Shown: positions 3,180 through 19,669 of the stretch, piece after piece | How positions within the stretch are numbered: the stretch's first letter is position 1 | How the letters are laid out: each line of letters opens with the position of its first letter | The notes under the pieces: generated by a model | The model's input: the letters and a program-made list of their open reading frames with translations, nothing else | Database searches by the model: none | What the model was told of the DNA's origin: nothing | Position numbers and translations under genes: made by a program | Source of the DNA: a virus | Taxonomy: Duplodnaviria; Caudoviricetes | Direction: 5' to 3' (one strand) | DNA length: 37,004 nt | Virus record (IMG/VR): IMGVR_UViG_3300048561_000081 | Location: 1 to 37,004 of that record

Positions 3180-5138
3180 CTACAGTCCCATCCCCATCCG
3201 TTGCGGCGCGCTCGTCCCGCTGCCGCTATTTGCGCCCGCGCCCAGTGCATTGGCGGGCGAACTCCCCCGCACGCGGAAGTCGTACGCTGCGGGGTTCACG
3301 AAGCGCGGGTCCGCGACGACGCTGGCCGCGTCGCTCAATTTGTCGGCCGCGGTGGAAACGTAAGTCGCCCACGCCGTTTGCACTCCGGAGATTCCCGACG
3401 CCAGCGTCACGTTGGCCCCGCCCAGGCCAATCACATTAGTGCCCGACGCCCACAAAACATTGCCCTCGAAGAAGTTGTTCCACGTGTTGGCATCGGCATC
3501 GTCTGCGCCGGGGTCAATCAGGTACGCCGTACTCCCCTTGAGGATGTTCCCGGCGATGCAATTGTCGGTCGCATTCGTGCCGTCCTGATTCGTGTCGATG
3601 GTCAGCGCTGATGTGTCTTCCGCAACGATGGTGTTGCCGATGACGTCGTTGTTTTTCCCGCCGGGAATGTAGAGAGCCGCATCCGTCGCCATGTTGCAGT
3701 AGATGGTGTTGCGGGCAATGACGTTGTCGTCGGACTTGAAGACGAGATTCCCCGCGCTCGAACTGCTCGGCGTGATGAACGTGTTGTCGTACATCCGCAC
3801 GTGGCTGGCACCCACGCCTGCAAAGAAGTTGTGATTCGCGGACGCGTGGGTCCACCGAAAGGTGTTGCGCGCCACGACGATGCTTTCAAACGCGCTCGTG
3901 TTTACCGTGGCATCCCCGCCATCGGTTTCCTTCCCGAGAAGAATGGCGTGGTGGTAGGTGAACTCCAAATCGTTATCGCGCACCTGCACGCTTCGCCAGT
4001 TTCCGGGCGAAGTCAGCAGCTTGCCCACCGAGCCGGTGCAATGCGAAAACCGCAGGCGCGTGCCGTAGCCGTTCAGGGCCGTGCCGCCTACAGCGGTTCC
4101 GTCCTGCAGAAAGCCCGTCGTGCTGGCGGCGATGGACTCATCGAAATCGATGTAATCAAAGTCGAGGGTAGCAATGTCGACGGCGCGAACGTTGCCAGAA
4201 AGCGGGATCGACATCCCGATTGTGGTCTGCAGCATTGGGCGCGTCGTCACGCCGAGAAATCCAACAGAGCCGACGTCGCTCGCAATGCGCGATAGGTAGG
4301 CTTTGCTCGTCAGACTGCCGCCCTCCATGTACAGGTCGGTCGACGATGAGCTTGAACCTTGAATGACGAGGCCGAAGCCTCCACTCGCATCGTTGCGGAT
4401 GTCGCAATTGATAAGCCGAAGGTCGGTTGCCACCGTGTTGATTATCGTGCTGGTGGGGTTGTTGCTGTTAATTCGGAACCCGTTCAGCGTGATAGTTCCG
4501 GTGGAACTTCCCTCGATGCTTATCGCGGCGTTGCCGCTGACCGAATCGCTCAGAAGGGGGTAAAGCCCGCCCGAAGCCACGCCGGTGAACGTGACGTTGG
4601 CGTTCGCGTCATCGAATACGACGAGCTTCAGGTAGTTGGGGTCCATGCCCTCATAGGTGGCAAAGGCGACGGATACCGTGTGCGTTCCGCCGATGGCTGT
4701 TTGGGCCGCCTTGTTTATCGTTCCGAATGGCCCCGTGGTCGTCCCGCCCGCCGTGGCGGCGAGCCCGGTGTTGTTGTTGCTTCCCTTAACGAGCCGATAG
4801 GTGACAGTGTCGTACGTTCCGCTCGACAACGCCGCGCCAAATTCGAGTCTCTTGGTCGAGCCCACATAGCCGGCCGTCGCCTTGCGACACTCCCCGCGGC
4901 GGGATCCGCTGAGGATGAGAATTCCGCAGTTCTCATACACTCCGTTCGACGTCGCGGCGTCGCTGGCAAGGATGATGTGCGTGGAGTCTCCGCCAGCCTG
5001 AGCCGTTCCCGAGATCGAGCCGTTGGTGGTAATGACGCAGTCCGAGCCGTCGACGTAGTATTGCGTCGCGATCGCCGGCAGAGCCAAGCTCACCGCGAGC
5101 AGCCATCCGATCCGAGTTGCGAGTGTTCGTACGCGCAT
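3180..5138 (-). CDS. Beta-helix (pectin-lyase-like) spike/depolymerase with N-terminal signal peptide
   Basis: AGGAGG RBS before ATG 5138; signal-like MRVRTLATRIGWLLAVSLALPAIA; YYVD..GPFGTINKAA N-motif; N/I/V-rich helix repeats; C-terminal DPRFVNPAAYDFRVRGSSPA motif. Confidence 0.75.
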   Translation of the reverse strand: MRVRTLATRIGWLLAVSLALPAIATQYYVDGSDCVITTNGSISGTAQAGGDSTHIILASDAATSNGVYENCGILILSGSRRGECRKATAGYVGSTKRLEFGAALSSGTYDTVTYRLVKGSNNNTGLAATAGGTTTGPFGTINKAAQTAIGGTHTVSVAFATYEGMDPNYLKLVVFDDANANVTFTGVASGGLYPLLSDSVSGNAAISIEGSSTGTITLNGFRINSNNPTSTIINTVATDLRLINCDIRNDASGGFGLVIQGSSSSSTDLYMEGGSLTSKAYLSRIASDVGSVGFLGVTTRPMLQTTIGMSIPLSGNVRAVDIATLDFDYIDFDESIAASTTGFLQDGTAVGGTALNGYGTRLRFSHCTGSVGKLLTSPGNWRSVQVRDNDLEFTYHHAILLGKETDGGDATVNTSAFESIVVARNTFRWTHASANHNFFAGVGASHVRMYDNTFITPSSSSAGNLVFKSDDNVIARNTIYCNMATDAALYIPGGKNNDVIGNTIVAEDTSALTIDTNQDGTNATDNCIAGNILKGSTAYLIDPGADDADANTWNNFFEGNVLWASGTNVIGLGGANVTLASGISGVQTAWATYVSTAADKLSDAASVVADPRFVNPAAYDFRVRGSSPANALGAGANSGSGTSAPQRMGMGL

Positions 5139-5202
5139 CCCTGCGCCTCCTAAATCGATGAAGGCATCAGCCTTCTCTTCAGGCTCCCGCATTGGTTGCC
5201 TT

Positions 5203-5230
5203 CAGCCCCAAGTCTCAAGTCTCAAGCCTA
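5203..5230. repeat. Heptamer tandem repeat CAGCCCC-AAGTCTC-AAGTCTC-AAGCCTA
   Basis: Read directly; the last three bases form the TAG stop of 5228..5608. Confidence 0.9.
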
Positions 5231-5608
5231 ATAAAGCCCCACAATGTCCGTCGCGGTCGTGCCCGTCGCCTTCACGATGCGCACGCGGTAAGGCAGGATC
5301 GATCCCGGCGGAACGTCCGGGAATCCAGTGCTGGTCGCGTCGTCGACCATGAACACCGTCAGGTTCCCGCCGCCGCCGACATAGATCGCGCGCGTCACGC
5401 GGGCCAGTTCGTTGGTGTTGTGCGGCGTGATCGCCGCGGCACTCCGCGCCGGACTGTCCGGCGTCACGGCCCAGCTCTTCCAGCTGTCCGTTGATTGGGC
5501 CACCGCGGTATTCCGCTCGCTCCATGCCGCGAAGCCGATGAGTACCAGGAGCAGCAGCACCATGGCACCCAGCAGCAACCGTTTCATTTTGTAGTCTTCG
5601 CTCTTCAT
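5228..5608 (-). CDS. Head-spike base-like protein (RcGTA Rcc01079-like) with N-terminal hydrophobic leader
   Basis: SPARSAAAITP..NELARVTRAIYVGGGGNLTV....FPDVPPGSILPYRVRIVKATGTTATDIVGLY matches my recollection of the spike-base family; leader MKRLLLGAMVLLLLVLIGFAAW. Confidence 0.75.
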   Translation of the reverse strand: MKSEDYKMKRLLLGAMVLLLLVLIGFAAWSERNTAVAQSTDSWKSWAVTPDSPARSAAAITPHNTNELARVTRAIYVGGGGNLTVFMVDDATSTGFPDVPPGSILPYRVRIVKATGTTATDIVGLY

Positions 5609-5617
5609 GGGTTTTTC

Positions 5618-6064
5618 CTAATCCGGTATCGGAACCTGTCCACTCAGCACCAGGAAGGTGATGTTCACTTCCCGCCGCACCCAGCCGTTCATGGCGCCGC
5701 CGCGGATCGTGTCCACGCGGCCGGCCGGCTGCACGCCCGTGACGATCGCGGTGGTGAAGGTGCGGTCGTCGCTCGTCACCAGCTCGCCGGCGTCGCCGTT
5801 GCGCTTCGCGGTTTCCGCATCCGCGATGATCTGATTCATGATGGCCAGCGTGCTGCAGCGCAGCGCCAGCCGCCACACGACGTTGCGGCCGCGTGCTCCC
5901 AGCACGCGCCGGAACAGCCCGCTGAACCCGACGAAGCTGTAGTCGACGCTGGCCACGTCCAGGTCGCCGGTGTCCACCGCGCAAACGGAATTGGCCGTGC
6001 CCGCGGTCGCAAGCGCGCCGCCGGGCAGTCCGACATCCAGTCCCGTGAAAGTCGGAGTGACCAT
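5618..6064 (-). CDS. Putative distal tail protein
   Basis: 148 aa, coupled directly after the tape measure gene; positional. Confidence 0.55.
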   Translation of the reverse strand: MVTPTFTGLDVGLPGGALATAGTANSVCAVDTGDLDVASVDYSFVGFSGLFRRVLGARGRNVVWRLALRCSTLAIMNQIIADAETAKRNGDAGELVTSDDRTFTTAIVTGVQPAGRVDTIRGGAMNGWVRREVNITFLVLSGQVPIPD

Positions 6065-7656
6065 CAGTCTCGCGCCGCCTCCAGGCCCTCGTCCGCGGGC
6101 GCATGCAGGCCGGGTTCAGGCCCGGCGTTGTGGTACATGGTGCCGACGTTGTAATTCGTGACGCGCACGTCGCGCTCCGCAGCACTCAATTTTCTGGAGA
6201 CGTCCGCCAACCGGTCATCAGACAGGCCGACCTGCAACCCGCCGCCACGCACTTTTTTCAAAGCCTCATCGACTTCGCTGGTGTTCCCTCCGCGCTTGCG
6301 CAGGTCATTCGCACGGCGCTCCAACTCTGCGGCGGTCTCCTCGTCAATGAATACCTCGTCGAGCCTCTTCACCGATTCGAAGGCGGAGATTTCTCCGCTC
6401 GCGAGCTTGCGTTCAAACTCCCGTTTCCCGATGTTGCGGGATTGCTCCAGCGGGGCGAGTTCCTCGCCCGTAACAGCTTCGCGCAAGCGTTCCTGGGCCT
6501 GCCCGCGATTCTGTTGAAATGCAATGTCGGTCTGCCGAACGGCCAGCGCGCGATCGACATCCGCGGCCGACGCATTTGCAATCGCTCCGCTGACATCCGA
6601 AGCGGCCGCCACGCCACCCGGGCCAAAGGCGTCAGCGGCGCGCTCCCCGCGCACGCCAATGCCACCCAGTTTCTTAGTGAACTTGCTGCTTTGTCCGGCG
6701 TCCCTCTCTTGCCCCAAAAGTTCGCGCGTAAGTGCAAAACGCTGCGCACTGGTGAGCGTTGCTGGATCCAGGCCCCGCTGCCGCGCCAGCGTCTTAATGT
6801 CTTTGGCCAGGCCGCTTTGTTCATCGAACGCCAGCGTCTCGAATGTGGCGAGGTTCTGCCCGCCGGCCTCGTCACTGGTTTCCGCCTTGCGCGCTTGACC
6901 CGCAACCTGCAGCACGTCATCAAGAGCTACGCCGCTCTTGAGTGCCCGCCCGCCTTTCGATGCCACCATTGTGGAGAATCCGCCGACCGTCGTGCCGGCA
7001 GCGGCGGCAGCCGCAGCTATCTTCGCGGTTGCGGCCTTGGCGTCCTCAGCGGAGCCGAGCGAACCCGACGCTTCAAGTACATCGAGCAAAGCGTTTTGAT
7101 CAGTCGTCTCCAGATTGAAAGCACCCACCGCACCAGCAAGCGCCTTGGCAGTCCCGATGTTCTGTGACAAGCCGCCGCGGTCCTTCGTCGCTCGATCGAA
7201 CGCCTGTCCAAACGCAGTCGCCTGGTCCTCTTTCAACCCTCCCGTCGCAGCCAGGTCGGCCAGGTCGATCCCCGCCTGGCCCGTCGTCTGCCCGGTCTGC
7301 GCTGCGAGCTTCCCCGCGCTCTCCGCAAAAGCCCGCGCCGACTCTGCCACTTTGTTTTGCGCCTCCTGCACGCGCTGTAGCTCCTGCCAGTATTCGGTGG
7401 CAATGGCTTTCACCGCAGTAAACGCAGCGCCCAATAGCCCCATCGCTGTAAGCAGCTTGCCCGCGCCGGGCGAGACGGTATTGAACACGTCCTTGAGTTG
7501 GTCGAACGTTGACTTCGACTCGCTGGCCGCGCTGCCCGCCTGCGAGGTTTTGCGCCCCAGATCCTCCAGGCTCACCCCGACTGAGTTGCACGCGCGCTCC
7601 GCTTCCTCCTTGCCGAGCACCTTGATCAGGATGTCGTAGCCGGTCATTTGCGCCAT
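6064..7656 (-). CDS. Tail tape measure protein (short, 530 aa)
   Basis: Ala/Gly-rich helical sequence, hydrophobic segment LLTAMGLLGAAFTAV, TMP-like N-terminus, follows the tube gene. Confidence 0.75.
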   Translation of the reverse strand: MAQMTGYDILIKVLGKEEAERACNSVGVSLEDLGRKTSQAGSAASESKSTFDQLKDVFNTVSPGAGKLLTAMGLLGAAFTAVKAIATEYWQELQRVQEAQNKVAESARAFAESAGKLAAQTGQTTGQAGIDLADLAATGGLKEDQATAFGQAFDRATKDRGGLSQNIGTAKALAGAVGAFNLETTDQNALLDVLEASGSLGSAEDAKAATAKIAAAAAAAGTTVGGFSTMVASKGGRALKSGVALDDVLQVAGQARKAETSDEAGGQNLATFETLAFDEQSGLAKDIKTLARQRGLDPATLTSAQRFALTRELLGQERDAGQSSKFTKKLGGIGVRGERAADAFGPGGVAAASDVSGAIANASAADVDRALAVRQTDIAFQQNRGQAQERLREAVTGEELAPLEQSRNIGKREFERKLASGEISAFESVKRLDEVFIDEETAAELERRANDLRKRGGNTSEVDEALKKVRGGGLQVGLSDDRLADVSRKLSAAERDVRVTNYNVGTMYHNAGPEPGLHAPADEGLEAARD

Positions 7657-7695
7657 GGGGTATTTCCAACACTAAGTCAGGTGCGGTAGCCTCGG

Positions 7696-8121
7696 TTACG
7701 GCGTCACATCGGCCATCGTCACCATGGTGGCGTACGTGTCGCTCGCTCCAAGCTTGGCCCGCGCGCTCACTGCCACCGTGCCCGTCGCGGTGTCCTGCAG
7801 AGCCGGAACGCGCCGGCCCACACGCGTGGCCTTCACGTTCTTGATCGTGACATCGCGCAGGTTGCCGCCCTGCTTGCGTTCGCGCACCACCAGGTTGCTC
7901 TCCGCGCCTGCCGCGAACGCGTGCGCCGCCGCCATGGAATTGAAGTTCAGCGACAGCGAAAGCGACCCATCCACCTGGTCGAACTCCTCCGGAGCGCCGT
8001 CCCCGCGGAATACTTTCTCGACGAACTGAAATTCGTCGCTCACGTCGAGCAGGCCTTCCACCTGCGTAGGCGTCGATCCGTGCGTCGCCTTCGTCGTGTT
8101 GGTGATATGCACTGCTGCCAT
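7696..8121 (-). CDS. Putative tail tube protein
   Basis: 141 aa, beta-rich, AAGGAG RBS, between the terminator-like gene and the TMP. Confidence 0.55.
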   Translation of the reverse strand: MAAVHITNTTKATHGSTPTQVEGLLDVSDEFQFVEKVFRGDGAPEEFDQVDGSLSLSLNFNSMAAAHAFAAGAESNLVVRERKQGGNLRDVTIKNVKATRVGRRVPALQDTATGTVAVSARAKLGASDTYATMVTMADVTP

Positions 8122-8139
8122 CGCAGACTCCTTTCGAAA

Positions 8140-8559
8140 TTATGAGTAACTGAACCTGAGCGGCGCCGTGAGCCAGACCAGGCTGGCCGGTTCGCTGCCG
8201 GTGTTGTCCTCGCTGAACCATGAGCCCAGCGTCGCATCCGCGGAGATGCCATCCACGTTGCTGTAGATAAAGTCTTTTGCCGCCGCGCGGAGCAGGGCGG
8301 TCATCTCTGCCAGCAGCTTGTCCTGAAAGCCCGCCGCTTCAAGGCGTGCCGCAGCCACGATCGTGTAATTCGCGAGTTGCTTAAAGCGGTTGTCGCCCGC
8401 GTCGTCGGGAGCCTCATCGTCGGTGACCCAAACCGCCAGCAAGGGAAAAGGCTTCTTCCACTGCATCGGCTCCACGCGCCGGCGCTCGATGGACGTGAAG
8501 TAAGCGGTAAGTTCCGGCTGCGCCAGCCACGCCGTCATGATGTCGCTGAAGTCACCCAT
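8140..8559 (-). CDS. Putative tail terminator protein
   Basis: 139 aa acidic; FPLLAVW and C-terminal LRFSYS strand pattern; position. Confidence 0.55.
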   Translation of the reverse strand: MGDFSDIMTAWLAQPELTAYFTSIERRRVEPMQWKKPFPLLAVWVTDDEAPDDAGDNRFKQLANYTIVAAARLEAAGFQDKLLAEMTALLRAAAKDFIYSNVDGISADATLGSWFSEDNTGSEPASLVWLTAPLRFSYS

Positions 8560-9243
8560 CTACGATGCTATTCCCAGTTCGCTCGCCAGTCGTCGATTGA
8601 ATGCCACCTGGAAGACGCCCGTGTTTTTGCGTACGCCCGCGGACAACCAATGCCGTGCAGGCAGCTTCGTGCGCGCCACCAGGAGGAACAGGAAGTACAA
8701 TTTGCGCTCGACCTTGCGCGGCGTTGTTTGCCCGTTGCGGCCGCGACGCCCGCCAGTGATCTTCATGCGTGCCACCAACATTGGCGGCTTACCCGGACGC
8801 TTCATGAGGAACATGTCCGGGTGCGTCTTCTTTGCTTCGCGGGGACCGCCCGGAAATTTGGGCCGGCCGCTCGGAGTCAGTGCGTCCTTCAACGGGATGG
8901 CCAATGCCTTGGCCTTCACCGGCAGGATGGGCGGATCACCCGTCTCGTGGATGCGGGCGTAAGCTGTTGCTGGGCCTTGAACTACTCCTATCGATGCCAC
9001 CAGCGAGCCGTCGTTGCCGACGCGGCGCCATCCCGTGCTCGCCCGCAACTTTCCGCTGCGCACACCCAGCGTATCAACGCCCGTACCCACAAATGCACTG
9101 GCAATGACAGCGCCTGTCAGCTCCTCCATGCCAGTGGCCAGCGCCTTGGGCAGTGCGGTCATCAGCCGCGGTCCAAAGTGTCGCGCAAGCTCGATAGCCT
9201 TCGCGGCATTGGTCTGGATTTCTATGACCGGAATCGACATCAC
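8560..9243 (-). CDS. Neck/tail completion protein (HK97 gp10 / Mu gpG-like)
   Basis: Motifs RSGKLRAS, YARIHETG, KAKALAIP, LPARHWL; basic. Confidence 0.75.
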   Translation of the reverse strand: MMSIPVIEIQTNAAKAIELARHFGPRLMTALPKALATGMEELTGAVIASAFVGTGVDTLGVRSGKLRASTGWRRVGNDGSLVASIGVVQGPATAYARIHETGDPPILPVKAKALAIPLKDALTPSGRPKFPGGPREAKKTHPDMFLMKRPGKPPMLVARMKITGGRRGRNGQTTPRKVERKLYFLFLLVARTKLPARHWLSAGVRKNTGVFQVAFNRRLASELGIAS

Positions 9244-9896
9244 CCGATCCCCAATCGCGCTGCACTCTTCAGCGGATTGACCACCGCGGTGATCGCTCCG
9301 ACCACGTCGAGATCGCGCACCACCTGCTCGATGGTCGCGGTGCCGACGTTAAAACTCCGCGCGCCGAAATTCTCCTTGTTCTTGAACAGGTGATGGGCCA
9401 GAAACGCCGCCGCCTGCCGCAGTGCCGCCGGCACTTCCGCATATCCCGGCAACGGCGCTTCTTCGTCCGGGATGTCGGCGCGCACCCAGCCGCCGTTGTA
9501 CTTCACGCGCACCCAGCCGCCGGCGAGCGTGAAGTCGGTGAACAAGTCGCGCCCGTACTCGAGGTGGCTCACGCGCGTCCGCTTGACGGCGTACTCGCTG
9601 TTGACCGTGAGCACGTCGGCGGTGTCCACCTCATCGCGCTGCAGGGCGCTGCGCACTTCGATGGCGCCCACGATCGGGAAGCCGGCCAGGTCCACGAACG
9701 GCGCCGCACCCTCGTGGTATTCGACGCGGTTCGCGAACGCCTCCAGGAGCGACCGGCCGGCCGCGTGATCGAAGCGCCCGGCATCGGCCGCAATCCAGTT
9801 CGATGCGAGCGTGCACATCGTGGCGATGATGACATCGTCCTCGTCATCGTCGCGCCCGATGATGGCCTTCACGTCTGCAGTGGTGCACAGCGCCAT
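9240..9896 (-). CDS. Head-tail adaptor (HK97 gp6-like)
   Basis: MALCTTADVKAIIG N-terminus, VRVKYNGGW and VPAALRQAAAFLAHHLF motifs. Confidence 0.78.
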   Translation of the reverse strand: MALCTTADVKAIIGRDDDEDDVIIATMCTLASNWIAADAGRFDHAAGRSLLEAFANRVEYHEGAAPFVDLAGFPIVGAIEVRSALQRDEVDTADVLTVNSEYAVKRTRVSHLEYGRDLFTDFTLAGGWVRVKYNGGWVRADIPDEEAPLPGYAEVPAALRQAAAFLAHHLFKNKENFGARSFNVGTATIEQVVRDLDVVGAITAVVNPLKSAARLGIG

Positions 9897-9906
9897 GGGT
9901 CCTGCC

Positions 9907-9930
9907 CTTCGTGGCTTCGTCGCTTCGTGC
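9907..9930. repeat. Octamer tandem repeat CTTCGT(G/C)(G/C) x3
   Basis: Read directly; the same unit recurs at 21915-21950. Confidence 0.8.
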
Positions 9931-9934
9931 CTAC

Positions 9935-10183
9935 TTAAGCGCCTTCCGCCGGCGCCGGCCCTGGCACCAGCTCGACGGCCGGCGTATCGTCCGGCGCCGT
10001 GGTCAGCACGCGCACCAACCGCACCTGGCTGGCGCCGATGGCCGGCTGCATTTCATACCACCGGGCCACGATCTTCCCGCCGACCGGGTGCACGGTGCCT
10101 TGCCAGCGCACGCCCGGGATCACCGTCTCGACTTCCACCCAGGTGTGCCCGGTGATCGGAATTCCTTCGTTTGGGTTTACCAC
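9935..10183 (-). CDS. Hypothetical protein in head-completion region
   Basis: Fills the operon gap; GTG start with GGAG RBS preferred over the ATG at 10216, which lies inside a repeat. Confidence 0.5.
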   Translation of the reverse strand: MVNPNEGIPITGHTWVEVETVIPGVRWQGTVHPVGGKIVARWYEMQPAIGASQVRLVRVLTTAPDDTPAVELVPGPAPAEGA

Positions 10184-10199
10184 GCTTGATCTCCGTATC

Positions 10200-10224
10200 G
10201 TGTGCCACTGCTGCATCAGCAGTG
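10200..10224 (+). repeat. REP-like hairpin family A, copy 2 (GTGTGC-CACTGCTG-CAT-CAGCAGTG)
   Basis: Perfect 8-bp stem, intergenic. Confidence 0.93.
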
Positions 10225-10239
10225 CAGGTTGTTTATGCC

Positions 10240-10446
10240 TTACTTCACCACATCCGTGTCGCCGTCATCCATGCGGTCGACGATCGCTTCATCGGCGGCC
10301 TTGCCGCCCTTGACTTCGACCAGGCTGTTCTTGTTGGCGCGGTACTGCTCGTTGCTGAGCGTGACCTGGTCGCCACGCGCGACGCGGCCCACGCCAGGAA
10401 TAAACAGCGCTCGCCGAGCCTGATATTGCTTGCCATCTTTGGCCAT
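10240..10446 (-). CDS. Small hypothetical phage protein (68 aa)
   Basis: GAGGAG RBS before ATG 10446; typical small gene after capsid genes. Confidence 0.65.
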   Translation of the reverse strand: MAKDGKQYQARRALFIPGVGRVARGDQVTLSNEQYRANKNSLVEVKGGKAADEAIVDRMDDGDTDVVK

Positions 10447-10471
10447 GAGTTGCTCCTCGTATCCGTGGATT

Positions 10472-10522: not shown

Positions 10523-10912
10523 TTACGCCACCGGTGCGTCCTGCGGATTGAGTCCCAGCAAGACCCATCCCGCGGTGGTGTTGTTGCCGCCCGCACGCGT
10601 GAGTTGCACGCGTACCTGCTTGCCGCCCTGCGCCGCATTGAACCCCAGCTTCTGCTGGGTATCCGATGCCTGGGCCGGCGTCTTCGCGGCCATCTCGTCA
10701 CGATCGGTGGCTGCCGTGGCGACGTCGTCGCCGTCCTGCAGCTTCGCGGCCAGCGTGCTGTCCGCCCCGATGATGCCGACCAGCAGCACCGCGAGGACCG
10801 CGGAATAACCCGTCGCGTCAACAGCGGCGCCGTTGACGGTGCCGGCGCCGGCCGCGGCGGGGGCCACATACTGCAGCACCTTCACGGCGTTTTTGGGGTT
10901 GCGAAAGAACAT
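10523..10912 (-). CDS. Putative capsid decoration/cement protein
   Basis: Immediately after the major capsid; GAAVDATGY, AKLQDGDD and GGKQVRVQLT patterns; AAGGA RBS. Confidence 0.65.
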   Translation of the reverse strand: MFFRNPKNAVKVLQYVAPAAAGAGTVNGAAVDATGYSAVLAVLLVGIIGADSTLAAKLQDGDDVATAATDRDEMAAKTPAQASDTQQKLGFNAAQGGKQVRVQLTRAGGNNTTAGWVLLGLNPQDAPVA

Positions 10913-10961
10913 TGGCTTTTTCCTTATCAAGTCCGGCCAGGGGCCGGCGTTGTTTTTCCTA

Positions 10962-10994: not shown

Positions 10995-12332
10995 TTACGC
11001 ATCCGCAGTCTTGATGATGGCCGCGGCGTTCGGCCAGGCGACCTTCACGCCCCAGCGCGACAGCGCCCGAATGGCGTTCTGCGCATTGCGGAAGCGCGCG
11101 TGCGGGCTGTACGCAATGACCAGCCGGCTGCGCGTGCCGAGCTTGATGGCCCGGCGCAGGTCGCCGAAGATGCCGAACTTGGTTCCTGGCGCCTCATCCG
11201 CCAGGCCGGGCAGAATGTCCGCGTACGTCACGTCCTTGCCCAGGATGCGCGACACGGCGCCGTTGGTCGGTTCGGTGAACAGCGGCCGGCCCACGCCGTC
11301 CTTCACGTCGGCGAGGATGTACTCCAGGTCGCTGCTTACCAGCACGCGGCAGTTACCCTCGCGGCGCACCTCGGCGGCGACACTGCCGAACAGATTGATG
11401 AAGTCCTTGTAAGCAATGTCGCCGAAGCCCGTCTTGCCGGCGGGCATGGTCACGACCGTAACGTCGGCGTGGTTGAGCAGGCCCACGAACTTGTTGAAGG
11501 GCTTGGTGCCGTCGCCCAGGAAGCCGCAGTCGTCGACCTTGCGAGCCATGCCGCGCGCGATGCGGTTGGCCCACAGCTCGCCGTAGTTGACCACGGCGTC
11601 CTCATCCAGGCTGACGCTCCACACGCCGTACGCGCCGAACAGCTTGGCCTCCAGCGTGAGTTGCTCGAAGTTGAGGGCCTTCTCCGGCAGCTCCTCACCT
11701 TCCTCTACCGCCACGACTTCCATGTCGTTGGAGTCCTTGGCGAAGGTGGTCTTGTCGCTGCCCATCGGGACCGGGTCGGCGAACTGCGGCAGAATGCCGT
11801 AGGCCTTCATAGCCGCGGTGATCACGCCGCCGAACTCCGGCGGGGAGAGGTAGCCGCCCAGCTCGTCGCTGGAAACGGCGCCGGCGCGTTCGACATCCTC
11901 AACGCGCTTCACCTCCAGGCCGTGCTTTTCCAGAGCCTGCTTGCTCTTGGCGTTGCCGGTGACCACCACGCTCATGAAGTGCCCGAATGCCGCAGCGGCC
12001 GTGCGGTTCGGCATCACCCGGCTGTGATCCTGCGCGTGGTAGCCGGGGTCGTACTTGACCAGCTCGCTGCCGCCGGCCTCGCCCTGTGCGGCAACCAGGC
12101 GCTCGTACTTGGCGAGCGCATCGGTCACTTCCTTCAGCCGCGCGCCGGTGTCGGCCTTGTTCTCGTTGAGCGCCTTCTCCAGCGCGTCCCACTTGGTCTT
12201 GAGCGCGGGGATTTCCAGCGGGTTGTCCGCGCGCCCCTTGATGTCGTCGAGCGCTTTCTTCAAGCGCTCCTGCCCGTCGGCCAGATCCTTCACTGCGCCG
12301 GCGAGCTTCTCGATGCCCTGTGTTGGGTCCAT
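10995..12332 (-). CDS. Major capsid protein, HK97 family
   Basis: Coiled-coil delta domain, GGYLSPPEF, VEEGEELP, FLGDGT..F.GLL, KDGVGRPLF, ILGKDV, FGDL motifs; AAGGAG RBS. Confidence 0.93.
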   Translation of the reverse strand: MDPTQGIEKLAGAVKDLADGQERLKKALDDIKGRADNPLEIPALKTKWDALEKALNENKADTGARLKEVTDALAKYERLVAAQGEAGGSELVKYDPGYHAQDHSRVMPNRTAAAAFGHFMSVVVTGNAKSKQALEKHGLEVKRVEDVERAGAVSSDELGGYLSPPEFGGVITAAMKAYGILPQFADPVPMGSDKTTFAKDSNDMEVVAVEEGEELPEKALNFEQLTLEAKLFGAYGVWSVSLDEDAVVNYGELWANRIARGMARKVDDCGFLGDGTKPFNKFVGLLNHADVTVVTMPAGKTGFGDIAYKDFINLFGSVAAEVRREGNCRVLVSSDLEYILADVKDGVGRPLFTEPTNGAVSRILGKDVTYADILPGLADEAPGTKFGIFGDLRRAIKLGTRSRLVIAYSPHARFRNAQNAIRALSRWGVKVAWPNAAAIIKTADA

Positions 12333-12372
12333 TCCTGGACTCCTTTTCAAAGGAACTTCCGTGTTCTCGCGC

Positions 12373-13092
12373 TCACGCCGCGCGCAGCTTGTTCACGGCA
12401 GCGCACGCCTCCGCGATGCGCTGCCCTGCTAATTCGTCTTCGCTCTCTCGGCCCATCAGTGCTTTGAGGTTGGCAACCGCCGCTTCCATCTGCGCCAGCC
12501 GTACGACCGTTTCCGCGGCGCACCACTGCTGCATCTTCAGGGCCACATGGTCCGTCACCAGGCAGTTGCTGTTGGCCGGCACGCTGCAGGCGGACAGCTC
12601 GCGCAGCGTGGCCTTGGTGTACGTGTAGATGCCGTTGACGGTCTTGGCTTCGTCGGCGCGGAAGCCCACGCTGAAAGCCCGGCCGTCTCCGCCGCGGTAG
12701 AGCTTCCACCACTCTTCGGCCATGTTCGTTTCCGCGAACCGCACCACGGCCACCAGGGCCGTGCCCACCGGCTTCACTTCCAGCACGCTGCCGATCTGGG
12801 CGGGATACCCACTATCCAGGCGGCGCAGGTGTGCCGGCAGGAGCACGGGGTTGCGCATGAACGCGGCGATGCTGTCATCGAACGCGCCCACCGCGATCGA
12901 CTCCTCATAGGTGTCGACGGTCGGGTCAGTGATCACGGCCGTGACCGTGCGCTTGTCCTTGTCGATCGAGCCCTCGCGCACGCAGAGGCGCGCAATGCGC
13001 GTATCGAGTTCGTCCGCGGGGATCCACTCCCGCGCTGCCGTGGGCACGTACTCGCGCACGTTCCAGATGTTGCGTTCGCGCCTGTCACTCAT
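12373..13092 (-). CDS. Prohead maturation protease, HK97 type
   Basis: NPVLLPAH, FSVGF, LRELSACSVPAN; ATGA overlap with the portal stop. Confidence 0.9.
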   Translation of the reverse strand: MSDRRERNIWNVREYVPTAAREWIPADELDTRIARLCVREGSIDKDKRTVTAVITDPTVDTYEESIAVGAFDDSIAAFMRNPVLLPAHLRRLDSGYPAQIGSVLEVKPVGTALVAVVRFAETNMAEEWWKLYRGGDGRAFSVGFRADEAKTVNGIYTYTKATLRELSACSVPANSNCLVTDHVALKMQQWCAAETVVRLAQMEAAVANLKALMGRESEDELAGQRIAEACAAVNKLRAA

Positions 13093-15395
13093 CGTGCGAA
13101 TCCCCCTTGCCCCGCGTCCCGCCGCTCGCGCACCAGGTCCGCGTACGTGTACATACCCAAGCGCTCCGCGGGATCGGATTTGCCGGCCAGTGCCTTGGGC
13201 ACGCTCACGCACGAGCAGTTGATGCGGTTGCCCGCGGAAAGATCGGTGTAGCCCGGATAAGGTGCATCCTCCCAGCCGCTGCCGTCACTGCGCCGCAGGA
13301 GGTAATTCTCCGCGATGGGGATGCCGTCCTTGCTGCGCTGCTCGCACTCCCGATGACTGGCGCGCACGCTGGCCTTGCCGCTGGTCAACCAGCGCTTACC
13401 GTCGATGCCCGCCTGCACCATGCCCTGTTGCCGGCCGGCGCACAGCGCCTCATGAATCTCCGTTTGTGCGATGACGTATCCGCGCGACTGCCAGGTTTCT
13501 TCGAGCAGCGCGTTGAGGCGCGCATCCAGCTCCGCCAGCGTTTCACCGGCGCGCATACCCTCAGTGAGCGTCTTGCGCACCTGGTCGCGTGTGTCGGCAT
13601 TGATACGCACAACCTTGGTGGCCAGTTGCTCGATGACCTTGACCGTCTTCGGATCGTGAATGGTGAACGTCGCGCCGCCGATTTCGTCCGCTATCTGCTT
13701 GCCGCCCAGATCCACGCCGTCGCTGAGCGCCGGCCGCATGACCGCGATGATCCTGTTGTCTTCGACGCCGCCGGCCTTCAGATCGAAGATGATGCGTTCG
13801 ATGGCATCGTTGATGTCGTCTTTGCCGCTTTCCGTTGGCGTGGCCGGGCTGGGGATGTACGGCAGCACCGTGCCCGCAAGCTTGTTGCGCATGTCCCCGA
13901 CCTGACGCTCCAGGAACGGGCGCACCACCTGCGTGGCCACGCGCTGCGTCAACGGCGACCAGGAGGCGAGCCAGCGCTGGTGCAGCGCGTTCTGCGTGGC
14001 GGTTATCCGCACGAGTCCAAGAATCTCATCTGCAATGGCGCGGGCCTTTTCTTCGGGCGTGGGCGTGACGGGCGTCTTCGGCGGCGTCGTGCTCGCGGCC
14101 GGCGGTGTCGGCTCACCTTCGGGCGCCGTGCCCACGGCCAGCAGCGCCCGCGCTTCGGCGACGGCGATGTCCATGGGGATTTGCCCAACCGGGATCATCG
14201 GCACTTCACGGTAGGGCTGCTTGGGTAGCGGGAAGCCCCACGTCTCGATGATCTCGTTTCCGGAGAAGCCCTTGCCGAGCAGCTCAGACGCCTTGACGAC
14301 CGTAGCGATTTCCTGCTCGCGCAGGCACTGCACGTCGGCGGTGTCCAGGCGGAGTTGCAGCCGGCCGCGATCGCCGCGCAGGAATATGGCATTGACGATG
14401 CCTTGAATGCGTCCCTTCAGCGGCAGACCCGTCATCGTCCAGAACGTCGCCTGCTGGATGGGCGCGCTGTTGTATTGCGCCTGGTCCATCAGGTTCATGA
14501 ACAGCGGGGGCATGCCGAAAGCCGTAGCGATGTACATGGCCATCAGGCGCAGGCCTTCCTGCCACTGCATGTCCTTCATGCCACCGACCCCGCGATCGAG
14601 CTTCACTCCGCCCGATAGCAGCACCGGGTTGCCGGCGTTCTGCTCACCGGTGTAGCGCTTGCGGATATTCTGCTGGGCTTCCTCGCGCTGCTCTTCCGTA
14701 AGCGTCGCGTCGGTGCTGAACACGGCGCCCACCTCGGCGCCGTTCTTGATCGCATTCTTGAAGAGCTTCACCCCGCGGTTGAGTGCTTCGATGGACTCTT
14801 CGGACACGCTCACGCCCGACAGCCCGTCGTCGCGCTTGCGCGGGTGGTAGTCGCGCAGCGCAAACACTTCCGAGAGCACCAGGCGCTGGCGGCTTCCCGA
14901 GTCCCAGGGCATGTAGTCGTAACCCACGATCGTGCGCCCGATGCGTACCGGTTCGATCTCGCTACGGCTGGCCACATAGATGCGCCGCTGGCTCGTGGAC
15001 ATGCCCGGCTTCCAGCCTGGCTCGAGCAGGTACGCGATGCCATCGAGAGCGAAGTGCGTGAGCATCGCGATGAGCAGCTCGTCCCCGCTCTGCTGCTCAT
15101 TGGGTTTTTCCACAAGCTGCAGATAGGGGTGATTGGGATCGTCGATCTGATTGCCGCCGGCGTCATACAACCGGACGGGCAGTCCGCCGAGCGATCCGGC
15201 CAGGGCCTTCACGGCGGCGCGCACGAACACGTTGGTTTCGTAGGGATTGGCGCTGCCGGCGCTGGACAGCCGGATTGCCGCCCAGATTTCTTCAAACGGC
15301 TGCAGGCCGGAATCGCTGCGCGTAACGAAGCTCGCCACCGCGCGCCCCGCCCGCGTGATTCCGTCCCAGGCCCGCTTGATGATTGTGTTGGCCAT
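13089..15395 (-). CDS. Portal protein (HK97 family) fused to MuF-like minor head domain
   Basis: N-part VRAAVKALAGSLGGLPVRLY, LVEKPN, NAGNPVLLSGG, IATAFGMPP; Pro-rich linker; C-part IAQTE, KRWLT, VRASH, INCSC. Confidence 0.88.
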   Translation of the reverse strand: MANTIIKRAWDGITRAGRAVASFVTRSDSGLQPFEEIWAAIRLSSAGSANPYETNVFVRAAVKALAGSLGGLPVRLYDAGGNQIDDPNHPYLQLVEKPNEQQSGDELLIAMLTHFALDGIAYLLEPGWKPGMSTSQRRIYVASRSEIEPVRIGRTIVGYDYMPWDSGSRQRLVLSEVFALRDYHPRKRDDGLSGVSVSEESIEALNRGVKLFKNAIKNGAEVGAVFSTDATLTEEQREEAQQNIRKRYTGEQNAGNPVLLSGGVKLDRGVGGMKDMQWQEGLRLMAMYIATAFGMPPLFMNLMDQAQYNSAPIQQATFWTMTGLPLKGRIQGIVNAIFLRGDRGRLQLRLDTADVQCLREQEIATVVKASELLGKGFSGNEIIETWGFPLPKQPYREVPMIPVGQIPMDIAVAEARALLAVGTAPEGEPTPPAASTTPPKTPVTPTPEEKARAIADEILGLVRITATQNALHQRWLASWSPLTQRVATQVVRPFLERQVGDMRNKLAGTVLPYIPSPATPTESGKDDINDAIERIIFDLKAGGVEDNRIIAVMRPALSDGVDLGGKQIADEIGGATFTIHDPKTVKVIEQLATKVVRINADTRDQVRKTLTEGMRAGETLAELDARLNALLEETWQSRGYVIAQTEIHEALCAGRQQGMVQAGIDGKRWLTSGKASVRASHRECEQRSKDGIPIAENYLLRRSDGSGWEDAPYPGYTDLSAGNRINCSCVSVPKALAGKSDPAERLGMYTYADLVRERRDAGQGGFAR

Positions 15396-15400
15396 ATTCG

Positions 15401-16858
15401 TTACGCCACCTGTCCCGGCCCGTAGACCCCGGTCGAAATTTTTTCACATACGGGATCCGGCTTTAACTGTTGCGGCCCAACCTCGATCACGTCGATGGCG
15501 CCAACGCCGACGTCGCCCGCCGCTTCGATCGCCAGGGCCAGGCCCCAGAATTCGTCCGCGTGGCCGGCGTCGTCGCGTTCGCCCTCGAAGCGCACATTGC
15601 CCGCGGCCGTCACCGTCTTGCGCACCTTGTGCAGCCCCTCGCGAATCTGGGCATCGTCGGGAACGCGGATCGTGCGATCTTCGAATCGCGTTCGAACCGG
15701 TATCGCCAGGGCTTCCTTGACCGGCCCGGTGAACACGACTTCCTCGACCGCGGAGTTTCCAAGGGTGGCCTTCAGGCCATCCGAAATACCGATGCCCAGG
15801 CCGGTTGCATCGACGCACGTGCGCCGCACTTTCGCGGCTCGTGCTGCGGCCGTGAGAATGGCAACCTGCTGCGGGATGGGCATGCCCTTGAGCACGATGA
15901 TGCGCCGCGTCCACAGCACGTCGCCCGTTCGTTGCAGGAACCATCCGACCGTGAGGTCTTTCTTGCGACCCACGTCGATGCCCAGGTACATCGGGCCGGC
16001 GTCTGCAACTTCGATCAATGGCTCATCCGGCCGCGGGCAGCTCGCATCCTCGCATGTGGCGATGAGTTGGTACGTCAGCCAGGCCGACGATTCCGCGCTC
16101 GGCTTGCAGCAGTACTCCTGCTGCCAGACTTCCTCGCCGCCGCAACCCGCGTGCTCCTCTTCGAGAAACCCCTCGACAGTGAACTTCGTGCCCTGGGTTT
16201 CGTTGATCAGCCCGACCAGGCCGTCCTCGCAGGCCTTGAAAATGTCCACGTAATGATGCGACCACGGCGCGATCTTGTTACCCGCACGCACCTTCAGGCC
16301 GGCGGCATAGGCTTTCGCGTCCAGGCAGAACTGATTGAACTTCGATCCCTCACCGTTGTGCGAACTACCGATCGTCATCCGTCCGCCCCAAGTCATCACG
16401 GGCTTGGCGGCCGCGTACAGCGCGATGGGATCATCGTGGAAGGCGAACTCGCTGATGGTCACATCGCCGCCCTTGGAGCGCATCCTGCGCGGCGAACTCG
16501 TCAGGCAGTTGATTCGCGCGCCGCTGGGGAAGCGAATGCAGAAGGCCTTGATCTTGCCCTTGTGATCCTCCGCTTCACCCATCGTGTCTTCGAAGTAATC
16601 CGCCACGCCCTTGGCCCGCTCGAACCAGTAGCGGCAGTACTCCGCAAACTCGAAAGCCGCGCTCTCGTCCGCGGAGGTGTACCACAGGTCGCGCGTGATG
16701 GTTTCTTTGATCCGGGCCATGGTCTGCTTGTATGACTCGCAGTAATCGAAGCCGACGCGCCGGCTCTTCTCCACGATCATGAAGCGGGACATGTCGTCCT
16801 GCATCCGATGGTGGTAAGGCAGCCACCGCACCTTCTTGGCTCGAATACGTTCCGTCAT
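15401..16858 (-). CDS. Terminase large subunit (Mu gp28-like)
   Basis: EKSRRVG Walker A-like, ISEFAF Walker B-like, WQQEYCC, GIDVGRKKD, VDATGLG, GHADEFW nuclease motifs. Confidence 0.9.
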   Translation of the reverse strand: MTERIRAKKVRWLPYHHRMQDDMSRFMIVEKSRRVGFDYCESYKQTMARIKETITRDLWYTSADESAAFEFAEYCRYWFERAKGVADYFEDTMGEAEDHKGKIKAFCIRFPSGARINCLTSSPRRMRSKGGDVTISEFAFHDDPIALYAAAKPVMTWGGRMTIGSSHNGEGSKFNQFCLDAKAYAAGLKVRAGNKIAPWSHHYVDIFKACEDGLVGLINETQGTKFTVEGFLEEEHAGCGGEEVWQQEYCCKPSAESSAWLTYQLIATCEDASCPRPDEPLIEVADAGPMYLGIDVGRKKDLTVGWFLQRTGDVLWTRRIIVLKGMPIPQQVAILTAAARAAKVRRTCVDATGLGIGISDGLKATLGNSAVEEVVFTGPVKEALAIPVRTRFEDRTIRVPDDAQIREGLHKVRKTVTAAGNVRFEGERDDAGHADEFWGLALAIEAAGDVGVGAIDVIEVGPQQLKPDPVCEKISTGVYGPGQVA

Positions 16859-17388
16859 GCCGCTCGATCAACCTCTTCCAGGAGCCGGGCCACTTCGGCC
16901 AGGCTCACCGTCTTTGCACCGCCCGCGGCCGCGTCCGGCTTGGCCGCGGCTTCGATCTTTGCCTTCGCCTCCGCCAGGCGCAGCTTGAACACGTGCAGCT
17001 CGCCCTTGCGCTGATCCTCGCGCATCTCCATCAGCGTCTCGATGGCCCGCAGTTGTCCGCTGGTTTTGTCCGCGACGAGCATCCCCTTGATCACCGTGCC
17101 CATCGCGGTCATCTGCACCGCGTCCAGCTTGCTGCGGTCAATGCCATACGCATCGATCAGCCCGTCGAGGAATTCCTTCGCATCCAGGGCGATTTCCAGT
17201 TGCCGCTCGCGGCGCCGGACCGTGGCATATTCCTGCAGCGTGCGCAGCGCCATCGCGGCCTGCACCGCGGGGAACTCGGTATAGATTTCCGTTGGGCTTT
17301 TCCCCATGTCCAGCAGGGCGTCGATCTCGGCGCGCAACGCGGCCGGGATTTCGTCGATCGCCTTGTTGCCTCTGCCAGTCTTGGCCAT
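16855..17388 (-). CDS. Putative terminase small subunit (Mu gp27-like)
   Basis: GRGNKAIDEIPAALRAEIDALL N-terminus; coupled upstream of TerL. Confidence 0.7.
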   Translation of the reverse strand: MAKTGRGNKAIDEIPAALRAEIDALLDMGKSPTEIYTEFPAVQAAMALRTLQEYATVRRRERQLEIALDAKEFLDGLIDAYGIDRSKLDAVQMTAMGTVIKGMLVADKTSGQLRAIETLMEMREDQRKGELHVFKLRLAEAKAKIEAAAKPDAAAGGAKTVSLAEVARLLEEVDRAA

Positions 17389-17439
17389 CGGAATCAGGCT
17401 TCAGGCTCTGCGCCCTCCGCGTCCTCCTGTTGGTTGCCC

Positions 17440-17697
17440 TTATCCCGCGGCCTTGCTCAGCTCGCGGATCATGTTGTTGACCCTGCGCAGCGCCTCGCGG
17501 TTCTTGCCGATGCGCTCCACGCCGTTGCGCAGGCTGTCCAGCGCCAGCTCGGTCACCGCCAGCAGGTTCGCCTCACCGTCGGTGTCGTGCAGTTCCGTCA
17601 TCATCCGCGACGTGTGCCGGTCATGTTCCGCGAGCAGCAGTTCCTTCTCGCGCTCCAGATCCATCAGCCGCCGCTGTTGTGCTTCCGTCAGGCTCAC
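17440..17697 (-). CDS. Hypothetical coiled-coil protein
   Basis: 85 aa, overlaps the upstream stop. Confidence 0.6.
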   Translation of the reverse strand: MSLTEAQQRRLMDLEREKELLLAEHDRHTSRMMTELHDTDGEANLLAVTELALDSLRNGVERIGKNREALRRVNNMIRELSKAAG

Positions 17698-18158
17698 TTG
17701 AACAACTCCAATCCCTTGGGCACCACGATCTGCAGAAACGATTGCAGCAGCGACACGATGATCGCGGTGGTCGCGACCACCTTGGCCACGCTCACGTTGA
17801 GCTTGTTGACGGCCTCACGGTGCCGCGCATGTTCCGCGTCACTGTTCTTGACATGCCGCTCGAACTCATTTTTGGGCAGATAGTCCTTCTCGATGGCTCC
17901 GATGCGTTCGCTCTTACGCGTGTCCAGCGCGAACAGCGTGCGGATGTCCTCGCGCGCCGTGGACACCAGTGCCCGCGTCTCCGCGGTGAGCCCCTCGCAC
18001 TTCACGGCCAGGTTGGCGTTGGCCGCGGTGAGGTGGTCGAGCCGGTCGGACATGCTGTCCATCCGCCCGACCACATTGTTCACGTCCGCGCGGATGCCGG
18101 CGAGTTGTTCCGCCAGCCGTCCCCGGCCATCGTTGCCCTGAGGCGTCGTCACCATCAC
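17694..18158 (-). CDS. Coiled-coil protein with C-terminal transmembrane segment
   Basis: Heptad-rich, ends VAKVVATTAIIVSLLQSFLQIVV; overlaps neighbours. Confidence 0.7.
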   Translation of the reverse strand: MMVTTPQGNDGRGRLAEQLAGIRADVNNVVGRMDSMSDRLDHLTAANANLAVKCEGLTAETRALVSTAREDIRTLFALDTRKSERIGAIEKDYLPKNEFERHVKNSDAEHARHREAVNKLNVSVAKVVATTAIIVSLLQSFLQIVVPKGLELFK

Positions 18159-18535
18159 GCCGTCCCCTCCGTCGCCGTCCAGGCGATCGCGTCATGGCCG
18201 CTGTACGTGCAGCGCCTTTCGGGGCCGCGTTTGACCAGGCCGAGCCGTTCCATTTCCGGCAGGCGTCGCGCCACGACGTAGCGGTCGAAGCCGCTGTGGT
18301 GGGCGATCTCTGAACTCGTCTGCGGTGTGCCACTGCTCTGTGAGCAGTGCGCCTTCATCCAGTTCAGGATCCGCGTGCGCTGCTTGCCGGCTTCGCCGCT
18401 CGCTTCGTGCGCTTCGCCGGCCTTGATGCTCGTGCCAGGATCGGTGGGTCGTGCGTTTGGAGAATCGAACAGCGGACCCGCCGCGTCGCGTTCCGCATTC
18501 GCACTTCGTGGCCATTCTGAAGGTCGCTTAGGCAT
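18155..18535 (-). CDS. Winged-helix DNA-binding protein
   Basis: ARPTDPGTS..A motif then TSSEIAHHSGFDRYVVARRLPEMERLGLVKRG; TGATG coupling at 18535. Confidence 0.75.
   Translation of the reverse strand: MPKRPSEWPRSANAERDAAGPLFDSPNARPTDPGTSIKAGEAHEASGEAGKQRTRILNWMKAHCSQSSGTPQTSSEIAHHSGFDRYVVARRLPEMERLGLVKRGPERRCTYSGHDAIAWTATEGTA
18325..18349 (+). repeat. REP-like hairpin family A, copy 3 (inside CDS)
   Basis: GTGTGCCACTGCTCTGTGAGCAGTG, identical to the copy at 19677. Confidence 0.93.
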
Positions 18536-18858
18536 CACTCCGCTCCCGCCCCGATGGGCTGTTCGAGTGCTCGCGTCTCCGCCCGCACGTGCGCTTCCGT
18601 CAGCGCCGCCATGAACAACGCCTGCACCAGTCGCGTCATTCGGCCGCGTTGCTTGCGGGCGTGGCCTGCCAGGAATTCCGCAAACTTCACCGGCCCCATC
18701 TCGGCGGCAGCGCACAGCTCGCAACACGTTTCGGCGCTGAGCTTCGCGGCGACATCGCGCAGCCGGGCCCAACGCTGATCGAGCAACGCCTGCGCCAATT
18801 GCAGTCGCCGCTCGCGTTGAGCCGTGGTCGGAGTCAGGTTGTCCTGGTTTCGTTCCAT
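18535..18858 (-). CDS. Hypothetical protein
   Basis: 107 aa helical ORF coupled to the downstream gene. Confidence 0.6.
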   Translation of the reverse strand: MERNQDNLTPTTAQRERRLQLAQALLDQRWARLRDVAAKLSAETCCELCAAAEMGPVKFAEFLAGHARKQRGRMTRLVQALFMAALTEAHVRAETRALEQPIGAGAE

Positions 18859-18873
18859 CGTTCTCTGTGCCGC

Positions 18874-18901
18874 GAGCCTCAAGCCCCAAGCCTCAAGCCT
18901 A
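18874..18901. repeat. Heptamer tandem repeat GAGCCTC-AAGCCCC-AAGCCTC-AAGCCTA
   Basis: Read directly; the last three bases form the TAG stop of 18899..19669. Confidence 0.9.
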
Positions 18902-19669
18902 GTAATCTCCGAGGTTTCTCCAGATCACCGTGATCGTCCCCGTGATCGTGCACGAGTCCGACGCCGTCACGTCGTTGCCTTCCCACGCCGAGTTGAGGAA
19001 CAGATCCACCGCGGTGCTTGTGCCGTCGAGCGCCACGTCCGTGGTCGCCACCTGCGTGATCGTCTTTGATCCGCTCGACAGGTCGCCTTCCGCTTTGGTC
19101 AGGATGTTCTGCTCGGTGGTCGCCAGTGCGTTGTTGTCGGTGCCCACCGTTGTGGATCCGACGCCCCAGTCGTACGTGGCCGATTCGCTGAAGCCCGTGG
19201 ATCCGCAATGGATCGCGAGGTTCATCGTCGCCCCTTCGAATTCCACGTATCCGGCCGGCCCTTCGTAGAGTTTGATGACGCCGTGCGCGCCGTTGGAGTT
19301 CGCATCGGTGATGGTCATCGCGGCCGCGGTCAGCGTGAACACCGTCTTGTGCGTCACGCCGTCGCCGTATTCAGCCACCGTGACGCCGGCCGATACCGCG
19401 GCCGTGGCCAGGTCGCCCGCGCCCGCGTCGCACACCAGCGCCTGCGCATCGGTGCTGATGACGCCATCCGAGTTGATGTGCAGCACGCCGCCATCGTCGA
19501 TGACAATGCGGTCCCCGCCGTCATCCAGATAGACCTTGGTGGAGTGCCCGCCATCGGCGCGAGCACTGGCCACGTTGGCAAGCTGAATGCCGAGTGCGAT
19601 GCATGACACAATGATCAGTGCGATGCCCAGTCGTTCGCTGCGGTTGAATCGTTCGCTTCTCACGTTCAT
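18899..19669 (-). CDS. Thr/Gly-rich beta protein (virion decoration-like) with signal-peptide-like N-terminus
   Basis: GGAG RBS; LGIALIIVSCIALGIQLANVASARA followed by an all-beta T/D/G-rich body ending TITGTITVIWRNLGDY. Confidence 0.7.
   Translation of the reverse strand: MNVRSERFNRSERLGIALIIVSCIALGIQLANVASARADGGHSTKVYLDDGGDRIVIDDGGVLHINSDGVISTDAQALVCDAGAGDLATAAVSAGVTVAEYGDGVTHKTVFTLTAAAMTITDANSNGAHGVIKLYEGPAGYVEFEGATMNLAIHCGSTGFSESATYDWGVGSTTVGTDNNALATTEQNILTKAEGDLSSGSKTITQVATTDVALDGTSTAVDLFLNSAWEGNDVTASDSCTITGTITVIWRNLGDY

Follow-up and report, generated by a model that had tools for sequence, protein, structure and literature searches.

The question raised by this locus is why a tailed phage would place apparent export signals on parts of its head, given the usual view that assembly of tailed-phage particles takes place in the cytoplasm and is complete before lysis. 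The window analysed, the whole 37,004-nucleotide (nt) stretch of IMG/VR record IMGVR_UViG_3300048561_000081 (Duplodnaviria; Caudoviricetes), is from a Mu-like transposable phage, as it encodes a Mu-type transposase, a transposition ATPase and a portal protein with a Mu F domain. Three of its late genes (3180..5138, 5228..5608 and 18899..19669, all on the minus strand) start with basic-hydrophobic leaders that end in AxA-type sites. They are predicted to encode a head-spike fibre, the base of that spike and a capsid-accessory protein, hereafter the fibre, the base and the jelly-roll protein. An earlier note on this DNA had drawn attention to the three genes, and each was confirmed together with its quoted leader. 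It is judged rather probable that the three proteins are Sec-exported and cleaved, that the base and fibre are assembled in the periplasm and that the parts bind expanded heads at lysis.

To rate the leaders, 26 open reading frames (ORFs) of the late region were scored with a heuristic of our own, combining the best uncharged 11-residue hydropathy with the net charge before that stretch. The three leadered ORFs scored 2.45, 3.29 and 3.19 with preceding net charges of +3, +2 and +2, and were the only ones with a hydropathy above 2.4 and a basic n-region. The next-highest values belonged to a holin-like gene (2.13) and two lipoprotein-like genes (1.96 and 1.86). By this measure no such leader was present on the capsid, portal, terminase, adaptor, tube, tape measure or tail-tip genes; among the 26 ORFs, leaders were confined to accessory outer parts and absent from the core virion genes. 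The design of a Sec/signal peptidase I (SPase I) signal, a basic n-region followed by an uncharged h-region of 10-15 residues, fitted all three. An AxA site at a conserved mature start was clear in the fibre (AIA/T; AFA/T in its homologue) and in the jelly-roll protein (ARA/D), and that of the base was farther from the h-region. No twin-arginine (RR) motif was found in the three leaders. A lipobox-like IVSC within the h-region of the jelly-roll protein varies in position among homologues.

Whether related phages keep the leaders, a check proposed in the earlier note, was answered positively in two. The first, L082 (IMGVR_UViG_3300028648_000006), is a Mu-like relative matching the window at 57% in the large terminase subunit (TerL) and 47% in the capsid protein. 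It carries a leadered base, a leadered, unrelated fibre of the LamG/DNRLRE/CBM96 type and a leadered jelly-roll homologue between the adaptor and neck genes. The second is an HK97/lambda-type non-Mu phage, represented by loci L086, L087 and L089 (counted as one phage), in which all three equivalents are leadered, as is one additional tail-region gene. At L089:1498-2430 (minus strand), the jelly-roll homologue is fused behind an 85-residue phrog_2616 (post-capsid) domain through an internal signal-like hydrophobic segment with an AxA site; cleavage there would free one domain to the outside, the other staying in the cytoplasm as a membrane-anchored piece. Leadered jelly-roll homologues were also found within the head module of L083, L228, L236 and L249. 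The first of these (NZ_JAQTXI010000020.1, 2994-10441) is a distant phage-like stretch in a metagenome-assembled genome labelled Neomegalonema, its capsid gene surrounded by four or more leadered genes; the stretch, low-GC in style, is possibly mis-binned. Eight loci similar in terminase, portal and mostly capsid contained no spike-base or jelly-roll homologue within the DNA examined.

The translation starts were then considered. The strongest ribosome-binding site of the fibre gene serves the ATG at 5138 (-9.9 kcal/mol), and the jelly-roll gene scored -5.4 at codon 1 and -6.6 at codon 3. These starts are upstream of the hydrophobic segments, so the downstream starts that would have undone the earlier note's idea are not indicated for these two genes. 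For the base, the ATG at 5608 (-3.9) scored barely above an in-frame GTG at codon 36 (-3.5); its leader, quoted previously from MKRLLL, is present, with the ORF itself starting seven codons earlier. If the leaders were functionless chance extensions, due to mis-called starts or translated intergenic repeats, it would be understandable that most family members are leaderless and that the n-regions of some relatives, such as the L082 base and L086:5412, are visibly translated 7-nt repeats. Yet the ribosome-binding sites ahead of two of the leaders are strong, the full set of three genes is leadered in each of three phages, the same n-h-c design recurs in 15 of 149 base representatives, and leaders occur at no fewer than three places in the jelly-roll family tree. 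Because two other phages keep leaders of diverged sequence on all three equivalents, the leaders do not appear to be mis-called starts, and chance extension is very improbable and largely refuted.

The same starts bear on a second explanation, in which the segments act as membrane anchors that are not cleaved, or in which dual starts yield anchored and cytoplasmic forms; anchored bases would then hold heads at the inner membrane while these mature, with assembly remaining cytoplasmic. The GTG of the base, with its similar ribosome-binding score, fits this explanation, as do the long h-region and distant AxA site of the base and the internal position of the L089 segment, which is followed by an in-frame Met. 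On the other hand, AxA sites are preserved across diverged leaders, the fibre has no in-frame start from residue 18 to at least residue 42, and the downstream starts in L089, L133 and the jelly-roll gene have weak or no ribosome-binding sites. By the positive-inside rule, basic residues before a hydrophobic segment put the domains after it outside, and the basic residues of these leaders would accordingly place the folded domains there. Anchoring is considered quite improbable.

The base could be assigned most directly. The head spike of RcGTA, from Rhodobacter capsulatus, is a pentameric Rcc01079 base bearing an Rcc01080 fibre (PDB 6TB9; PMC7296036, PMC5026251, PMC10218006). The base binds capsid pentons via its N-terminus, including the acidic cation ligand Glu12 (PMC7296036), and the fibre docks on the pentamer via an N-terminal IALGLGLGL (PMC7296036, PMC10218006). 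The suspected resemblance of the window base to Rcc01079 was upheld by NF048002, with 96.4 bits against a cut-off of 28 and the whole model (1-85) aligned on residues 41-126, and by Rcc01079 in 6TB9 (E 2.6e-7). As in RcGTA, the N-terminal capsid-binding arm is present, with Asp51 aligned to Glu12. The spike base of PDB 8CJZ, which we take to be that of phage Carin-1, and the leaderless bases of the cultured phages P8625, immuto_2-6A and RcapNL belong to the same family. The family norm is about 85-90 amino acids (aa) starting at the arm, and in the window a leader of about 37 extra residues precedes an otherwise complete base, unlike in the translated bases of P8625, immuto and one uncultured record. 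The leadered base is best regarded as a known family in a new form.

When the 149 best representatives among relatives of the base were scored, 15 had leaders (16 were flagged, and one with an acidic n-region was rejected by eye), a share biased upward because the query contained the leader. A second scan aimed at leadered bases yielded one new case among 56 new unique bases, and none of the 13 GenBank phage matches to the base covered the leader. In an alignment of 16 leadered bases, the leaders vary freely and the conserved Asp of the family's normal N-terminus comes just after them. In a tree of 136 base sequences (90 columns, quick search), the 18 leadered rows were scattered, with 14 changes compared to a shuffled mean of 17.1, a scatter that would still be compatible with one leader origin. 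Two leadered bases, L133:4514-4849 (between terminase and portal) and L260:3066-3416 (before the head-tail adaptor), have no adjoining fibre gene.

The fibre shares with its RcGTA counterpart a position after the base gene, a likely sugar-binding role and an alternating hydrophobic-Gly peptide at one end. It differs in that both it and the base have signal-peptide-like leaders within a Mu-like phage genome, in that it is not homologous to Rcc01080, and in that the docking-like peptide is C-terminal rather than N-terminal. No PDB sequence, Rcc01080 included, matched the fibre at E<=1 in single-sequence or profile searches, and the window fibre had no Pfam match. The gene previously reported as a beta-helix gene beside the base is directly behind it, and the beta-helix call itself is weak: one close relative, P0101 (53% identical, sharing the mature start but not the leader sequence), matched PF13229 below the cut-off (E 0.0049), and an Atlas feature match (0.96) led to a viral cluster, 11% of whose members have PF13229. 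The single-sequence model had a predicted local distance difference test (pLDDT) score of 36.5, too poor for use. A right-handed beta-helix is likely, if weakly supported. By analogy, the fibre probably acts like Rcc01080 yet stands outside the Rcc01080 family.

The ends of the fibres were compared in more depth. The N-terminal IALGLGLGL is not found in the window fibre, whose N-terminus is the leader, and a similar motif is at the other end of the protein. The leadered fibres end in RMGMGL (window), RMGLGM (L086) and VGFSLGVGL (L082), and the genes after the bases of P8625 and immuto start with MIGLGLDL and MYIGLGISL. A strict end motif (hydrophobic-G-hydrophobic-G-hydrophobic) was scored in two scans of viral contigs. 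Of the unique leaderless bases in these scans, 100 had an ORF downstream that could be scored and another 16 did not. Behind the leaderless bases, 32 of 100 genes start with an (L-G)n-type motif and none ends with the strict motif; behind the unique leadered bases, none of five starts with the motif and three end with it. Among 2541 long reading frames of the loci examined, six had the strict ending, all of them copies of the three leadered fibres. That all three leadered fibres end in a docking-like motif suggests that the spike still assembles. We infer that the docking peptide moved to the free C-terminal end when the signal peptide took the N-terminus, and such a relocation would imply selection for an assembled spike.

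This motif also bears on a third explanation, that the proteins are exported without joining virions and serve as decoys, receptor masks, capsule-clearing enzymes or superinfection blockers built from reused virion parts. The leaders look genuine, the window jelly-roll gene is located among membrane and lipoprotein genes apart from the head genes, some leadered bases have no fibre neighbour, and domains of the beta-helix and CBM96/DNRLRE types are often found in proteins that bacteria secrete, all of which this explanation would accommodate. However, an intact base with a capsid-binding arm and a fibre with a docking-like tail have no clear use off capsids, and the C-terminal motif favours virion use over host-surface repurposing. 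Moreover, the genes share the orientation of the structural genes and are tightly coupled to them, the base ATG being 10 nt past the upstream stop, and the leadered jelly-roll homologue stays in the head module of L082, L089, L083, L228, L236 and L249. Reuse off the virion is rated as unlikely, with assembly into virions preferred.

For the jelly-roll protein, profile matches were obtained to phrog_11997 (E 6.4e-16) and phrog_12102 (E 1.2e-4). Fold searches with its model returned only generic jelly rolls and uncharacterised phage proteins (best Z 7.2), the Pam1 and GP4 capsid chains matching at Z ~6, and no sequence homology was found to phage L Dec, T4 Hoc/Soc or phi29 gp8.5. A leaderless-profile scan gathered 71 unique members of this uncharacterised family, four of them credibly leadered (six flagged). 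In 55 of the 71 a large ORF lies just upstream, and for 39 of these 55 its best match is a major head protein, with many types represented; a role as capsid accessory is therefore likely for the family. Homology to a virion protein, which the earlier note needed, is shown for the base, and this family is tied to the capsid gene in relatives. The 'decoration-like' label of the window protein would follow from gene position and the generic jelly-roll fold. In the window itself the gene is not beside the major capsid gene; the three genes do share one co-oriented late run, but their placement within a morphogenesis operon has to be amended, as this gene is upstream of the terminase among membrane/lysis-type genes and not among head genes.

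The seven best relatives of the jelly-roll protein are leadered, as are 9 of all 34. A 37-row tree of the family calls for three or more leader gains or losses, and a single leadered clade was rejected (approximately unbiased test, p 7.8e-8). Of the leadered members, 7 of 12 have both Cys155 and Cys240, a combination seen in none of the 25 leaderless ones. By the predicted strands, the two residues end and begin a pair of strands, which would be adjacent in the topology of a canonical jelly roll. Disulfides could matter for this protein, and the Cys-free base would simply follow its fibre. In a related Mu-like phage, the equivalent slot upstream of the terminase (L012:8568-9362) is occupied by a non-homologous, leadered, beta-rich protein.

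Several points weigh against export and loading at lysis. Export, cleavage and virion location of the three proteins were inferred from sequence, and the leader signals were rated by a home-made heuristic. Most base and jelly-roll relatives are leaderless, including 67 of 71 in the leaderless-profile search and all 63 base relatives from a word search, and the leaderless decoration-like gene after the capsid gene indicates that not all accessories take an export route. In the base, the AVA site is about eight polar residues past the h-region, such that an uncleaved anchor is possible; the GTG at codon 36 would yield a normal 91-aa cytoplasmic base, making a leaderless second product possible; and in the bases of L082 and L086, Asn takes the place of the acidic arm residue. 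Two of the five leadered bases (the L129 group and L260) have no neighbouring fibre gene. The end motif was defined post hoc from the three sequences, which represent only two independent fibre families (the window fibre and P0101 being 53% identical); the window motif has three alternating hydrophobic residues versus five; and two leaderless bases precede genes with loosely similar ends (KLGL in L157, ALAL in L119). A need for disulfide folding was discarded as the only reason for export, as the base has no Cys and only one of seven fibre Cys is conserved in P0101. The seven Cys-pair jelly-roll proteins all fall in one tree group.

Taking export and late loading as the preferred reading, a sequence of events can be proposed. 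During late infection the base, fibre and capsid-accessory protein would be Sec-exported and cleaved by SPase I, which would free the N-terminal capsid-binding arm of the base. Five bases and one fibre would pre-assemble in the periplasm, the fibre docking via its C-terminal peptide because the signal peptide occupies its N-terminus. Once capsids and periplasm mix upon inner membrane failure, spikes would bind the capsid pentons and the jelly-roll protein the head surface; the spikes would then mediate first attachment to host polysaccharide, as in RcGTA. Late loading would be feasible because decoration proteins can join finished capsids: according to a review, some (Dec) bind finished capsids in vitro (PMC7602432), and phage L Dec, T4 Hoc/Soc and the phi29 gp8.5 head fibre bind expanded heads as outer parts that are dispensable and can join capsids already finished (PMC7602432). 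The text of that review has no mention of signal, periplasm or secretion (PMC7602432). Within the literature covered, no description of Sec-exported tailed-phage head spikes or parts was found.

Virion proteins with cleavable signal peptides do exist in filamentous phages, whose coat proteins pIII and pVIII stay in the inner membrane until the virion is extruded without lysis; they differ from the proteins considered here in virus class, fold and the absence of lysis. The earlier note's interpretation is partly supported, and none of the findings it had named as refuting was made. More broadly, the chances appear even that tailed phages have a second, extracytoplasmic assembly line, in which Sec-secreted head spikes and fibres are built in the periplasm and snapped onto capsids at lysis, with lineages having switched in repeatedly and the fibre docking peptide having moved to the C-terminus, making room for the signal peptide.

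Table 1. Positions of the leadered genes, their predicted parts and other features of the window
Feature	Position	Strand	Basis or detail
Predicted head-spike fibre, 652 aa, likely right-handed beta-helix in C-terminal part	3180..5138	-	directly behind base
Predicted signal peptide of fibre, aa 1-24	5067..5138	-	AIA/T, behind AGGAGG site
C-terminal QRMGMGL, candidate base-docking peptide	3183..3203	-	sequence; RcGTA motif
Head-spike base, Rcc01079 family, 126 aa, N-terminal leader	5228..5608	-	NF048002, 6TB9, phrog_12296
Predicted signal peptide of base, aa 1-37	5498..5608	-	putative AVA/Q site; codon-36 GTG possible second start
Predicted capsid-accessory (head-fibre-like) protein, 256 aa	18899..19669	-	leader, phrog_12102-like N-domain, jelly-roll C-domain (phrog_11997)
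Predicted signal peptide of capsid-accessory protein, aa 1-38	19556..19669	-	ARA/D
Cys155-Cys240 codon span, candidate disulfide pair	18950..19207	-	
Decoration-like gene after capsid gene, without leader	10523..10930	-	phrog_5707
HK97-type major capsid protein, without leader; presumed spike-base partner	10995..12350	-	PF05065, phrog_10
Mu-type transposase and transposition ATPase	26828..30170	+	phrog_310 E 5.6e-81, phrog_296 E 1.3e-42
AGCAGTGGCACAC copies	3147-3159, 10200-10212, 18325-18337, 19677-19689, 20548-20560, 32954-32966	-	exact match

The co-oriented minus-strand late run comprises terminase, portal fused to the Mu F domain, protease, HK97-type capsid, adaptor and tail genes. The window end interrupts the tail region, and more fibre genes may therefore be missing. 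Since the window proteins are also recorded on a 1.13-Mb contig, the record fits an integrated prophage. Four public RNA runs gave just short contigs with even, low depth over window 1-20000 and no listed sequence differences, a pattern unable to show transcription. Upstream of the jelly-roll gene, a membrane gene cluster (19708-22008, minus strand) combines a holin-like gene with a pair of lipoprotein-like genes and a small two-helix ORF; none of the proteins scanned was recognised as an endolysin. Two genes of the early region (30902-32952, plus strand) are possibly secreted morons: one encodes a dockerin-like/beta-helix protein (PF13229, E 1.1e-7), and the product of the other is likewise rich in repeats and may contain a signal-like segment. 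A HicB-like gene (PF05534; 35045-36010, minus strand) with a small ORF upstream is a possible toxin-antitoxin-type pair.

The element AGCAGTGGCACAC has six exact copies, all on the minus strand, against a chance mean of 0.07, and forms the 3' arm of an 8-bp hairpin in the four copies that were folded. As L086/L087, an unrelated phage, also has it, the element may be a REP-like repeat of the host and a hint of a host group common to both phages. Many short 7-nt tandem repeats are present between window genes (e.g. 3113-3144, 5209-5226, 18875-18900, 20417-20448 and 31960-31990), and in relatives such repeats are translated into leader n-regions. The host of the window phage is perhaps of Planctomycetota type, by our own guess.

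If a secreted head-spike module is real, it would add a compartmentalised step to the assembly of tailed phages, would tie their host range to the Sec and periplasmic folding machinery of the host, and would explain why many 'hypothetical' genes with signal peptides are found in structural operons. The idea is directly testable because both a solved structure and a genetic model are available for Rcc01079/Rcc01080, and the C-terminal docking peptide provides a sharp prediction that would separate virion use from decoy use.

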